From Elusimicrobiota bacterium (GTDB lineage: Bacteria; Elusimicrobiota; Elusimicrobia; UBA1565), in contig JACRDO010000132.1 in the NCBI GenBank assembly GCA_016212885.1, positions 28,779-92,778 of the forward strand: 64,000 nucleotides of DNA. Direction: 5' to 3'. Made by a program: the position numbers and the translations under genes. Shown here piece after piece: positions 34,223 through 42,857 of the stretch. Numbering within the stretch: the first letter of the stretch is position 1; each line of letters begins with the position of its first letter. The notes under the pieces are model-generated. The model was not told the DNA's origin. It ran no database searches and saw only the letters and a list, made by a program, of their open reading frames with translations.

Positions 34223-34864
34223 CTACCGCTCCAAGAAGCCCGGCACCTCCCGGATGTCGTCTAGGACCGGGACACCGCTCCTCACCAGCCGGTGCTTGGC
34301 CTGATAGCCGCGCGCGATGAGCGCGCAGCCCACTCCCATGGCCCGCGCGGTCTCCAAGTCATGCACGGTATCGCCGATCAGGATGATCTTCTCCGGCTCT
34401 ATGCCGCAGGAGCGGATCCAGCTCGCGCCCAGCTCCACCTTGCTGCCGGCGTGGTAGTCCCCCAAGCCGAGGACCGGGTCGAAATAGTCCCGGATATTGA
34501 AATGGACCAGCGCTTTTTCGAGCATCTCGTGCTTGTAAGCCGATAGGATGCCCTGCTGAATTCCCTTGCCGCGGAGCGTCTCCAGAACGTCCGCGGCGCC
34601 CTCGTGGAGGCGGCCTTCGGCCCAGATGCGCTCATGGTAGAGCCCCGCCCATTCGTTCGCGGGGACGTCGAAAGGCTCCACGCTGAAGTCGAAGCCGATC
34701 TTCCGGTAGAACTCGATGACGGGGAAGTCGAAGTTCTCGAGGTAGTACTCCAGGGGGACCTCGGGCATGGAGCGGCGCCGGCGCATCGCGTTGAGGCACT
34801 CGAGGCAGAGCCGGGCGTCGTCGAGGAGCGTGCCGTTGAAGTCCCAGATGACGCGCCGGATCAC
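34223..34864 (-). CDS. HAD-superfamily hydrolase (phosphoglycolate phosphatase-like), about 213 aa.
   Basis: Motif I VIWDFNGTLLDD. Motif IV IGDTVHDLETARAMGV. GTG start overlapping the stop of the upstream GGDEF gene (GTGA). The Arg/Pro-rich upstream part of the 462-aa ORF is treated as non-coding. Confidence 0.75.
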   Translation of the reverse strand: MIRRVIWDFNGTLLDDARLCLECLNAMRRRRSMPEVPLEYYLENFDFPVIEFYRKIGFDFSVEPFDVPANEWAGLYHERIWAEGRLHEGAADVLETLRGKGIQQGILSAYKHEMLEKALVHFNIRDYFDPVLGLGDYHAGSKVELGASWIRSCGIEPEKIILIGDTVHDLETARAMGVGCALIARGYQAKHRLVRSGVPVLDDIREVPGFLER

Positions 34865-35826
34865 TTGTCGCCGCGGCGGTCGATGACGAAGCGGGAGCCC
34901 GGCCCGTCCTGCTGCTTGGCGAACTCCTTGAGCTCGGCGCAGATCTGGCTGACCTGACCGTAGGAGACCAGGCGCCTCTGGCGGTTGTGGCAGACGCCGA
35001 TCGCGATGGAGAGCAGGGGATGCTCGATGAGCCGGCCTTGGCGGTCGTTGGCCAGGATACCCCCGCGGGCGCGGTCTTCCTCCGGGTAGAAGGAAGGGGA
35101 GAGCCGGTCGAAGCCCTCGACCACGCGGCGGCAGAGGGCCTCCATGCTGTCCGGGTGGGTCACGATGATGAAGTCGTCGCCGCCGATGTGGCCGAGGAAG
35201 TCCGTCCCCGTCCCCGCTTCCCGGACCACCTCCACCAGCAGCTTGGCGGTCGCCCGAATGACGCGGTCCCCGGCGTCGTAGCCGTAGTGGTCGTTGTACG
35301 CCTTGAAGTCGTTGAGGTCGAGATAGAGCACGGCGAAGGGCCGAGCGGAGGCGACCGCTTCGGCGATGCGGTTTTCGATCATCACGTTGCCCGGCAGGCG
35401 GGTCAGGGGGTTCGCGTCGAGCCCCTGGCGCGTGCGGCGCAGGATCATGCGGATGCGGGCCAGCAGCTCGCCCAGGTTGAAGGGCTTGGTGAGGAAGTCG
35501 TCTGCGCCGCTTTCGAGGCCCTCGATGCGGTTCTCGACTTCCCGGCCAGCTGCCGAAAGGATGATGATGGGCAGGTGCTGGAACCCGGGGTCCGCCTTCA
35601 GCTCCCGGCACACGCTGAAGCCGTCCTTGAGCGGCATCCAGAGGTCCACGACGGCGATGTCGGGCACCTCGGCCCGGATGGCCGCCAAGGCCTGCTCGCC
35701 GTCCATGGCAATGCGCACCTCATAGCCTTCCTGCTCCAAGGCGCCTTTCATCAGCGCCAGCAGGTCCGGCTCATCATCGGCGACCAAGAGCCGCGCTTTC
35801 TTGACAGGAGAAGATTCGGGGCCCAC
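34861..35826 (-). CDS. Response-regulator receiver + GGDEF (diguanylate cyclase-like) protein with a noncanonical GGDDF active-site motif. PleD/WspR-like.
   Basis: Receiver ARLLVADDEPDLLALMKGALEQEGYEV...VDLWMPLKDGFSVCRELK. GGDEF domain FAVLYLDLNDFKAYNDHYGYDAGDRVIRATAKLL...GHIGGDDFIIV. Start placed at the in-frame GTG (VGPESSPVKKARLL). The ORF-track start at 36216 would run antisense through atpZ. Confidence 0.8.
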   Translation of the reverse strand: MGPESSPVKKARLLVADDEPDLLALMKGALEQEGYEVRIAMDGEQALAAIRAEVPDIAVVDLWMPLKDGFSVCRELKADPGFQHLPIIILSAAGREVENRIEGLESGADDFLTKPFNLGELLARIRMILRRTRQGLDANPLTRLPGNVMIENRIAEAVASARPFAVLYLDLNDFKAYNDHYGYDAGDRVIRATAKLLVEVVREAGTGTDFLGHIGGDDFIIVTHPDSMEALCRRVVEGFDRLSPSFYPEEDRARGGILANDRQGRLIEHPLLSIAIGVCHNRQRRLVSYGQVSQICAELKEFAKQQDGPGSRFVIDRRGDK

Positions 35827-35853
35827 GCGGGAAGGGTAGCATATTTGCTTAAA

Positions 35854-35883
35854 TTGACAGGCTTTTTCGGTTATTTGTAGAAT
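35854..35883 (+). promoter_or_regulatory. Sigma70-like promoter for the atp operon: TTGACA, 18-nt spacer, TAGAAT.
   Basis: aaaTTGACAggctttttcggttatttgTAGAATtg, read directly. Lies in the AT-richer gap between the divergent GGDEF gene and atpZ, about 20 nt upstream of the atpZ ATG. Confidence 0.5.
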
Positions 35884-41519: not shown

Positions 41520-42487
41520 GGGAGATCCGGCGCAAGATCAAGTCGGTGCGGTCCACCGAGCAGATCACCAAGGCGATGAAGATGATCGCGGCCGCCCGGA
41601 TGCGCCGCGCGCAGGCTTCGATCCTCGCTTCGCGCCCCTTCGCGGAGAAGATGGAGGAGGTCGTCTGTGGCCTCGCGGCCCTGGAGCGGGAGTCGCTCGA
41701 TCACCCGTTCTTCAAGCCCGCGTCGGCCGCCACCATGGCCTCGGAGGCGGGCCGCCCCTCGACGGCATCCCGAAGCGGCATTCCCTCGCCGGAAGGCTCG
41801 GTCACACTTCCTCGGGTTGGCCCTCGGTCGCCCGCGGCCCGTCCGGATTGCGGGGCCGGCCTCATCCTTGTGGCGGCCGACAAGGGCCTCTGCGGGGCCT
41901 TCAACGCGAACACCCTGCGCTCGGCCGTGGAGTGGATACGGGGCCGGCAGGAACGACCGGTCCGCCTGGCGGCCGTCGGCCGCAAGGCCCGCGATTTCGC
42001 CCTGCGCCTCCAAGGGGCTTCGATCGTCTACGAGATGGCCGGCATCTTCCCGAAGGTGTCCTTCGCCCACGCCGAGCTCCTCGGGCAGGCCGTCATCTCG
42101 GCCTATCTGGAAGGCCGGGTCTGCTCCGTCACGGCGATCTACAACGAGTTCCGTTCGGTGGTGTCCCAGAGGGTCGTCAAGCAGGAGCTGCTGCCGATCC
42201 CCATCCACAAGGAGAACGTGCGGGCCATGGATTTCAGGTTCGAGCCGGAGCGGCGCCGGGTGCTGGCCGCCCTGCTCCCGCGCTACCTGAAAGCCCAGCT
42301 CTACCGGATCCTGCTGGAGTCGCAGGCCGCGGAGCTGGCCGCCCGGATGAACGCGATGGACGCGGCGTCCAAGAACGCCGGGGAGCTGATCGATTCTCTG
42401 ACCTTGTCGCTCAATAGGACGCGGCAGAGCCTTATCACGAGGGAGATCGCCGAGCTGGTCGGCGGCGCGGAGGCCTTGGCCGCATAG
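41507..42487 (+). CDS. atpG: F0F1 ATP synthase subunit gamma, carrying a ~45-aa Pro/Ser/Ala-rich insertion before the DKGLCGAFN motif.
   Basis: N-terminus [36 protein letters not shown]. Motif [11 protein letters not shown]. C-terminus [24 protein letters not shown]. GGAGG RBS upstream. Overlaps hldD by 13 nt. Confidence 0.85.
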   Translation: [326 protein letters not shown]

Positions 42488-42509
42488 ATCGGCGGATCTT
42501 GGGAGACAA

Positions 42510-42857
42510 ATGAAAATGGCATTGAAGACTACGGAAGAGAAGCGCAGGCACCCCCGGTTCCCGGCGGGCATCTCCATGGTGCTGTTCATCAGAGGGAGAA
42601 ACGTGGGCCGGTGCAAGGGCGAGATCCTCGATCTCTCCGTCGGAGGCATGGCCTTCAAGACCCGGGCCGAGCTCGAGGAGGGGTCCTCGCTGTTCCTGAA
42701 GATCAACATCCCCCTGGAGATCCGGGGCGAGGTCCGTCATATCAAGGCCGGCGGCGCGCTTGCGCACCGCTACGGCGTGCATTTCCATAAGATCGGCTTC
42801 AGCTCAGCCGACATGAAGAGGCCGGCGAACTTCATCGCGGCGAAGTTCCAGAAATGA
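42510..42857 (+). CDS. PilZ-domain (c-di-GMP-binding) protein inserted between atpG and atpD (115 aa).
   Basis: RxxxR motif (RRHPRF) and DxSxGG motif (DLSVGGMAF). GGGAG RBS upstream. Stop overlaps the atpD start (ATGA). Confidence 0.75.

Follow-up and report, generated by a model that had tools for sequence, protein, structure and literature searches.

A PilZ-domain gene conserved between atpG and atpD in the ATP synthase operons of Elusimicrobia: a possible c-di-GMP-controlled accessory subunit of F1Fo

The window analyzed here is a 64,000-nucleotide (nt) stretch from a groundwater Elusimicrobia metagenome-assembled genome (GenBank assembly GCA_016212885.1, contig JACRDO010000132.1, positions 28,779 to 92,778 of the forward strand), in a region with a G+C content of ~67%. 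It contains an F1Fo ATP synthase operon in which a gene for a stand-alone PilZ-domain protein, a putative receptor of cyclic dimeric GMP (c-di-GMP), lies between the genes of subunits gamma (atpG) and beta (atpD). A response regulator made of a receiver and a GGDEF-type domain, called Rec-GGDDF below after its motif, is transcribed divergently from the operon. According to open reading frame (ORF) listing, Pfam and NCBIfam searches, and inspection of start codons, the operon (35905–44720, plus strand) consists of 13 tightly packed genes, the junctions of which mostly overlap or are shorter than 25 nt. All eight structural subunits (a, c, b, delta, alpha, gamma, beta, and epsilon) are present in the canonical atpZIBEFHAGDC order, as judged from Pfam, NCBIfam, and the annotation of orthologs. 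To these genes the atp operons of this clade have added three, which encode an exported protein, a sugar epimerase, and the PilZ protein. A preliminary description of this DNA recognized the PilZ and the divergent Rec-GGDDF genes, and both are borne out; it missed the two further non-atp genes, which lie between atpA and atpG.

The PilZ gene (42510–42857, plus strand) encodes 115 amino acids (aa). It starts 22 nt past the atpG stop (42487) with a Shine-Dalgarno sequence of its own (GGGAGA), and its stop overlaps the start of atpD in an ATGA at 42854–42857, by which PilZ is translationally coupled to atpD. The protein matches the Pfam profile PF07238 with E=8.3e-15 and 55.4 bits (gathering score 22.5), residues 10–95 aligning with positions 1–88 of the 102 in the profile. 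The RxxxR motif reads R12-R-H-P-R16, and the DxSxxG motif reads D41-L-S43-V-G-G46. Thus, the Pfam match, the two motifs (RRHPR and DLSVGG), and the ATGA overlap sustain what the preliminary description had said of this gene, namely that it encodes a PilZ domain with intact motifs and is inserted, translationally coupled, between atpG and atpD. That description had also allowed for the motifs proving degenerate on alignment. In alignments of 28 and 35 sequences, R12, R16, S43, and G46 do not vary, and D41 reaches a conservation of at least 90%; R12 and R16 are also kept in 58 PilZ sequences derived from the individual loci. The exceptions, all in the second motif, are EVSASG in locus L060, DLGLGG in L070, and DLNAEG in the second of two tandem copies in L062. 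The copy with this weakened motif is the one that adjoins atpD.

An AlphaFold2 model of the PilZ protein, computed from the 28-sequence alignment, predicts six strands, but its confidence is low (predicted local distance difference test, pLDDT, 58; predicted template modeling score, pTM, 0.48), so the model is too poor for surface or interface analysis. The top PDB matches returned by Foldseek for this low-confidence model are the c-di-GMP-bound PilZ domains of BcsA, VCA0042, PA0012, and PP4397, all of them weak (E 3e-3 to 5e-2, template modeling score ~0.47). A sequence profile search of the PDB with the PilZ alignment gave a sole match, the PilZ domain of BcsA, at E 0.098, and no close solved relative. 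Searches of Pfam, NCBIfam, and the PDB yielded PilZ-type matches only; they revealed no relationship to the ATP synthase inhibitors zeta, IF1, and AtpTheta, and no similarity to known assembly factors. A regular-expression scan of the window found no GGDEF or PilZ genes other than the two described here.

The preliminary description proposed a search for PilZ genes in the atp operons of related taxa. A species-level scan, in which each GTDB species is represented by one genome, returned 56 Elusimicrobia loci, and a PilZ gene lies between atpG and atpD in all 56. A PilZ gene of the same, atp-linked family occupies this slot in five further contigs, and at least four operon layouts are represented overall. 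The gaps around the gene are short, with medians of 16 and 12 nt, and the ATGA overlap with atpD recurs in 15 of 57 loci (the 56 and the window). Three long contigs have a layout identical to that of the window, including the divergent Rec-GGDDF gene, the exported protein, and the epimerase. In a search of 5.8 billion proteins, PilZ retrieved 156 relatives with identities of 57–84%, and all those with an organism name belong to Elusimicrobia. A recent horizontal insertion of the gene was also considered and rejected: the G+C content at its third codon positions is 0.86 as compared with ~0.9 in its neighbors, and its position is conserved clade-wide.

In more distant lineages, the slot is kept, although other parts of the layout differ. 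L062, L065, and L066 (G+C 52–55%) have the order atpA-atpG-PilZ-PilZ-atpD(-atpC) and no epimerase; Rec-GGDDF is missing upstream in L065 and L066, while the L062 contig ends at atpA. L068 (G+C 47%) has a single PilZ gene in the slot and none of the epimerase, Rec-GGDDF, or other inserted genes. In L070 (G+C 46%), the operon is split, and a detached unit consists of atpG-PilZ-atpD-atpC. L072 carries PilZ-PilZ-atpD-atpC. PilZ is, across these layouts, the most persistent of the extra genes of the operon. Absence from close relatives had been named at the outset as a sign of incidental insertion; instead, PilZ occupies this slot in all related genomes that were examined. Since the slot is kept in lineages without the other inserted genes or Rec-GGDDF, incidental insertion is very unlikely, and a functional tie between the PilZ family and the ATP synthase is supported. 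It should be noted that the slot has also seen tandem duplications of PilZ, which are located in L062 at 2549–3397, L065 at 10001–10699, L066 at 10001–10707, L072 at 41–741, and L020 at 9618–10354.

The PilZ family is small. A profile search of 1.84 billion cluster representatives gave 76 matches at E<=1e-10 and 5 at E<=1e-30. Among the matches checked for gene context, an atp linkage was seen at 92, 86, and 81 bits and was lacking at 89, 75, and 73 bits. The 89-bit match is a double-PilZ protein (L067) and represents the sole exception down to 81 bits among the checked contexts. Each checked atp-linked PilZ gene is directly upstream of atpD, and it follows atpG wherever the contig extends that far. 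Two subgroups can be distinguished, one with 55–84% identity to the protein of the window and a C-terminal FIAAKFQK tail, the other with 42–53% identity and no such tail; both keep RxxxR, DxSxxG, IRGEVR, and RRYGVRFHKIG. Median identities to the window proteins in loci of the closer and the second subgroup, respectively, are 62 and 48% for PilZ, 55 and 53% for gamma, 57 and 59% for epsilon, 54 and 49% for subunit a, and 80 and 77% for beta. The corresponding values are 61 and 61% for the epimerase, 60 and 59% for Rec-GGDDF, and 39 and 38% for the exported protein. Within the closer group, the constraint on PilZ matches that on gamma and epsilon, the F1 stalk subunits.

The second component of interest is the Rec-GGDDF gene (34861–35826, minus strand), which encodes a putative phosphorylation-controlled diguanylate cyclase with the motif GHIGGDDF. 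Pfam recognizes the receiver (Response_reg, E=5.6e-28) and the GGDEF domain (E=6e-18, 65.6 bits against a cut-off of 23.8), the latter over positions 5–106 of the 161 in the profile. The preliminary description was right about the domains, the motif, and the promoter region from which this gene diverges, while the interval that it quoted, 34861–36216, is the maximal ORF; the gene itself is shorter. Its likely start is the GTG at 35826, giving 321 aa, and the orthologs have 312–314 aa. Of the 39 loci with enough flanking sequence, 33 have Rec-GGDDF in divergent orientation to the atp operon, and GHIGGDDF is present in 33 of 34 orthologs. A HAD-family hydrolase gene (HAD_2, E=2e-23; 34223–34957, minus strand) lies directly downstream on the same strand and overlaps the end of the Rec-GGDDF gene. 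This neighbor is kept in the closest relative (L001/L007), while L003 and L005 instead have a single-domain receiver protein and a thiolase.

The receiver residues D10, D11, D54, and K107, which make up its acidic pair, phospho-acceptor Asp, and Lys, are invariant among the Rec-GGDDF orthologs. A HMMER alignment (LD-LNDFKAYND-HYGYDAGD) places equivalents of the metal-binding D327 and the guanine-binding N335 and D344 of PleD in the GGDDF domain, and these are conserved across the orthologs. An RxxD I-site five residues before GGDDF is absent; the window sequence there is TGTD, and the position is variable among orthologs. The I-site is not obligatory for the GGDEF family. A conserved insertion of ~14 aa follows the GGDDF motif, and the C-terminal third of the domain is divergent. 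As to whether such a domain can be catalytic, a GGDDF enzyme of Geobacter, GSU1937, is active, and a GGDDF-EAL protein, PA3258, is inactive (PMC8835794). Given one active precedent, diguanylate cyclase activity of Rec-GGDDF is plausible. Because the guanine-binding residues are conserved and the position that distinguishes Hypr enzymes holds Asp rather than Ser, c-di-GMP would be the expected product, not cyclic GMP-AMP (cGAMP).

Locus L071, from an Elusimicrobia lineage (RIFOXYD2_FULL_34_15, G+C 34%), has a relative of Rec-GGDDF with 38% identity over 307 residues and a single one-residue gap. The gene is directly upstream of a PilZ gene of the atp-linked family (35% identity), outside any atp operon. 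Such co-occurrence away from atp genes is as would be expected of a putative producer–receptor pair. The two genes are part of a co-directional module at 4967–6823 of L071, which continues with a flavodoxin/FMN-reductase-like gene, the start of which overlaps the end of PilZ.

A general tie of the Rec-GGDDF family to atp genes or PilZ was considered and rejected. Gene context was checked for the best 80 (L073–L152) of at least 585 metagenome relatives. Among these 80, only the Elusimicrobia-like ones, with identities of 55–59%, are divergent from atpZ or atpB, with L104 as the one further case of linkage to atp genes; relatives at 38–50% identity have no atp or PilZ neighbors among those listed, again except for L104. 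In L104 (3–1837; G+C 39%), a contig cut inside atpD, the order is atpD-atpC-Rec-GGDDF; the three genes are co-directional, with ~270 nt between atpC and the Rec-GGDDF gene, which has 43% identity to that of the window. L104 is a second, different physical association of the family with an atp operon. The hallmarks of this family are the invariant motifs GHIGGDDF and FKAYND and the conserved post-motif insertion, and we found no characterized members in the literature.

The two other inserted genes adjoin atpA (38642–40156, plus strand; Pfam ATP-synt_ab, E=1.6e-79, together with the N- and C-terminal domains), and the two are, like all other genes of the operon, on the plus strand. The first (40153–40593), which overlaps atpA in an ATGA, encodes an exported, all-helical protein of 146 aa with no family match. 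The second (40593–41519; Pfam Epimerase, E=2e-46) encodes an NAD(P)-dependent sugar epimerase, which we call HldD-like only, because its score of 261.6 bits against TIGR02197 (ADP-L-glycero-D-manno-heptose 6-epimerase) is just under the cut-off of 274.6. The epimerase occupies the same atpA–atpG slot in all high-G+C loci and is missing from the low-G+C lineages.

The subunits that PilZ might contact look to be of the usual type. Gamma (atpG, 41507–42487; Pfam ATP-synt, E=1e-84) has 326 aa as compared with 290–300 aa in orthologs. It carries an insertion of ~40 aa, residues 71–110 (41717–41836), that is rich in Ala, Pro, Ser, and Arg and is absent from PDB gamma chains and from the orthologs; either a low-complexity expansion specific to this genome or an artifact of the assembly could account for it. 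Beta (atpD, 42854–44275) was identified by Pfam and by 731 bits to the beta chain of 2qe7, with which it is colinear apart from two short insertions. Epsilon (atpC, 44268–44720) is full length, C-terminal domain included, and matches NCBIfam NF009980 with 129.8 bits (cut-off 129) over positions 2–132 of 136. A lineage-specific docking feature was sought in the three subunits, and none is diagnostic, beta being colinear, the gamma insertion confined to one genome, and epsilon full length. At ~43640–43670, beta carries a sequence variant relative to 2qe7 beta and low-G+C L070; this variant is common to L068.

The remaining genes of the operon are atpZ (35905–36129; PF09527, putative F0F1-ATPase subunit, E=1.6e-15, in the same position in related loci); an atpI-like gene for a small membrane protein (36155–36460, with TTG at 36155 or ATG at 36215 as its start), which by frame and position matches an unannotated gene of 88–131 aa between atpZ and atpB in L001, L003, and L005; and, identified through annotated orthologs, atpB (subunit a, 36457–37221; ATP-synt_A), atpE (subunit c, 37278–37568; ATP-synt_C), atpF (subunit b, 37579–38103; ATP-synt_B), and atpH (subunit delta, 38100–38636; OSCP). 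Just 5′ of atpZ, in an AT-rich island between this gene and the divergent Rec-GGDDF gene, is a sigma-70-like promoter (TTGACA-18-TAGAAT; 35854–35883, plus strand), which agrees with the consensus at 11 of 12 positions; two sites of this quality occur in 11.5 kb, with 0.5 expected from shuffled sequences. Terminator-like hairpins inside the operon are no commoner than in shuffled sequence. An ORF of 429 aa with C-terminal HEAT-like repeats (44717–46006, plus strand) starts 4 nt before the atpC stop and may be a further co-transcribed gene; in L001, an unannotated gene likewise overlaps the end of atpC by 4 nt.

The preliminary description read from the gene context that c-di-GMP might modulate the ATP synthase or its assembly, and gene context alone does suggest a mechanism of this kind. 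The reading that we favor, to which we give slightly less than an even chance, is that PilZ is a c-di-GMP-controlled accessory or regulatory subunit of F1Fo, a “brake,” fed by the response-regulator cyclase. Given the domain identities, the conservation of the motifs, the embedding in the operon, and the deep and exclusive conservation of position, we infer that PilZ may be the dedicated c-di-GMP receptor of the Elusimicrobia ATP synthase. It would be translated from the atp mRNA alongside gamma and beta and would bind c-di-GMP via RxxxR and DxSxxG. One of its states, most likely the ligand-bound one, would dock on the F1 head or central stalk, in the beta/gamma/epsilon region, and restrain rotation. 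The most plausible purpose of such a brake would be to limit wasteful ATP hydrolysis or to retune coupling when the lifestyle changes. In the high-G+C clade, the divergent Rec-GGDDF could serve as a local, phosphorylation-controlled source of the ligand, which would connect a sensor kinase to the ATP synthase. The fully specified model, in which F1Fo is c-di-GMP-gated, PilZ brakes the rotary enzyme as a ninth subunit switched by its ligand, and the GGDDF response-regulator cyclase supplies the ligand, is put forward tentatively and with some doubt.

Several observations count against the brake. The evidence consists entirely of gene context and sequence conservation, and the contact of PilZ with F1 is putative. 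The structural model of PilZ is poor (pLDDT 58). Conservation is lower in the second PilZ subgroup (48%), from which the FIAAKFQK tail is missing. Beta, gamma, and epsilon look canonical, with no lineage-wide docking insertion, and epsilon keeps an inhibitory C-terminal domain of its own. On the side of the proposed cyclase, GGDDF departs from the active-site motif [G/A/S]G[D/E]E[F/Y], a large part of the Pfam GGDEF profile remains unmatched, and most members of the broad Rec-GGDDF family have no link to atp genes or PilZ. Finally, the HldD-like epimerase and the exported protein are stably embedded in the atp operon with no evident role in ATP synthesis. In the presence of two such genes, conserved embedding in this operon is no proof of shared function, and it is weaker evidence in this clade than it usually is.

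This last point leads to the main rival explanation, which is that PilZ is a c-di-GMP receptor for another target, for example, an envelope or polysaccharide process, and rides in a strong, constitutive atp operon that tolerates and keeps inserted genes. We consider this unlikely. The exported 146-aa protein and the epimerase are indeed equally stable between atpA and atpG, yet PilZ holds the gamma–beta slot in lineages that have neither of them nor Rec-GGDDF, and it stays with atpG-atpD-atpC when the operon is split, as in L070. The pairing of PilZ with Rec-GGDDF in L071 implies that the family can function away from atp genes, whereas the closer family members with checked context are all atp-linked. 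A passenger would fit with the lack of visible adaptation in beta, gamma, and epsilon; it fits less well with a conservation of PilZ comparable to that of the F1 stalk subunits. Should this explanation be right, what remains would be an operon architecture that is unusual yet stable, found in an uncultured lineage.

According to a second alternative, PilZ is an assembly factor that chaperones beta or the alpha3-beta3-gamma complex, similar in function to mitochondrial Atp11/Atp12; c-di-GMP would then tune the amount of enzyme built, and PilZ would not be part of the finished enzyme. The location directly upstream of atpD, often with translational coupling, would suit such a small and soluble protein, and assembly was among the roles raised in the preliminary description. 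The data do not separate an assembly factor from a regulatory subunit; however, PilZ domains are generally known as ligand-switched adaptors rather than chaperones, and the searches described above linked PilZ to no known assembly factor. Overall, we regard this role as distinctly improbable. The least likely explanation, to which we attach very little weight, is a ligand-independent structural subunit, i.e., a PilZ fold that serves as an extra F1 subunit, with motifs that are structural or meant for another nucleotide and with Rec-GGDDF as an unrelated neighbor or a non-catalytic regulator of atp transcription: although type II PilZ proteins without c-di-GMP binding are known in Xanthomonas and Pseudomonas, GGDDF is usually taken as degenerate, and the second motif is weakened in some members (the second copy of L062 and L070), the (near) invariance of RxxxR and DxSxxG over ~60 lineages is the signature of ligand-binding PilZ domains, the guanine- and metal-binding residues of the GGDDF domain are conserved, and activity has been demonstrated for one GGDDF enzyme (PMC8835794).

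We found no report in the searchable literature of a connection between PilZ or c-di-GMP and an atp operon or the ATP synthase of Elusimicrobia, and the main paper on Elusimicrobia genomics makes no mention of PilZ or GGDEF. The parts are already known in kind, i.e., a PilZ receptor, a Rec-GGDEF regulator, and an F1Fo operon; their conserved wiring and the implied target are new. c-di-GMP controls motility, adhesion, polysaccharide secretion, the cell cycle, and transcription, and, to our knowledge, its established targets do not include the F1Fo ATP synthase. Regulation of bacterial ATP synthases is mainly ascribed to epsilon or, in particular clades, to zeta or AtpTheta. If the brake is real, a nucleotide second messenger would act directly on the central energy-converting enzyme, a first of its kind, and the concept of a rotary motor restrained by PilZ would reach beyond the flagellum to the ATP synthase. 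The fixation of PilZ in the atp operon across a large branch of the phylum offers a concrete, testable route from lifestyle signaling to energy conversion. Two protein families also emerge from the analysis, a compact PilZ family for which the gene context is diagnostic and a large, uncharacterized family of response regulators with an invariant GHIGGDDF.

Comparison with known systems helps to place both proteins. Rec-GGDDF shares the GGDDF motif with GSU1937 of Geobacter (PMC8835794), but Hypr enzymes such as GSU1937 have Ser where Rec-GGDDF keeps Asp. With PleD and WspR, it shares the order of a receiver followed by a GGDEF-type domain; the receiver of the window protein scores 97.6 bits against the first receiver of PleD, a value usual for response regulators. 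It differs from these proteins in having a single receiver, the invariant GHIGGDDF, no RxxD I-site, and the ~14-aa insertion after the motif.

Among proteins that restrain F1, the closest functional counterparts would be the C-terminal domain of epsilon, zeta of Paracoccus and other alphaproteobacteria, mitochondrial IF1, and cyanobacterial AtpTheta, each a small protein that holds back F1 according to the physiological state, as PilZ is presumed to do. These F-type inhibitors are helical and are not known to be under second-messenger control, whereas the PilZ protein is a predicted β-barrel; in addition, none of zeta, IF1, and AtpTheta is known to have its gene in the gamma–beta slot occupied by PilZ. 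A precedent for c-di-GMP signaling that reaches ATPases of the F1 alpha/beta superfamily is provided by FliI and HrcN, F1-beta-like export ATPases that reportedly bind c-di-GMP (a finding ascribed to Trampari et al. in 2015). In that case, the nucleotide binds the ATPase directly, whereas here a separate PilZ receptor would mediate, and the target would be F1Fo itself.

PilZ adaptors are known to act on the flagellar rotary motor (YcgR and MotI) and on the ATPase PilB (the protein PilZ). In size and domain composition, the protein described here resembles MapZ/PA4608, which binds CheR1, and PilZ/PA2960-XAC1133, which binds the PilB ATPase and FimX. These are single-domain proteins of ~110–125 aa that work by protein–protein contact alone, and one of them docks on a hexameric ATPase. 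They differ in their targets, which belong to chemotaxis or the type IV pilus; moreover, the PA2960-type proteins are devoid of the binding motifs that the protein described here keeps. The atp-linked PilZ family has a signature of its own, the FIAAKFQK tail being present in one subgroup only.

YcgR of E. coli and Salmonella and MotI/DgrA of B. subtilis share with the atp-linked protein a PilZ domain with RxxxR and DxSxxG. In sequence, the two sides are related only through the general PilZ fold. YcgR and MotI carry an additional YcgR/PilZN domain at the N terminus and act on MotA, FliG, or FliM, while the protein of the atp operon is a single domain of 100–125 aa. Nevertheless, YcgR and MotI are c-di-GMP-switched adaptors that act directly on a membrane-embedded, ion-driven rotary machine, the flagellar motor, as its brake or clutch, and as such, they provide the working analogy for a putative PilZ brake on F1Fo.

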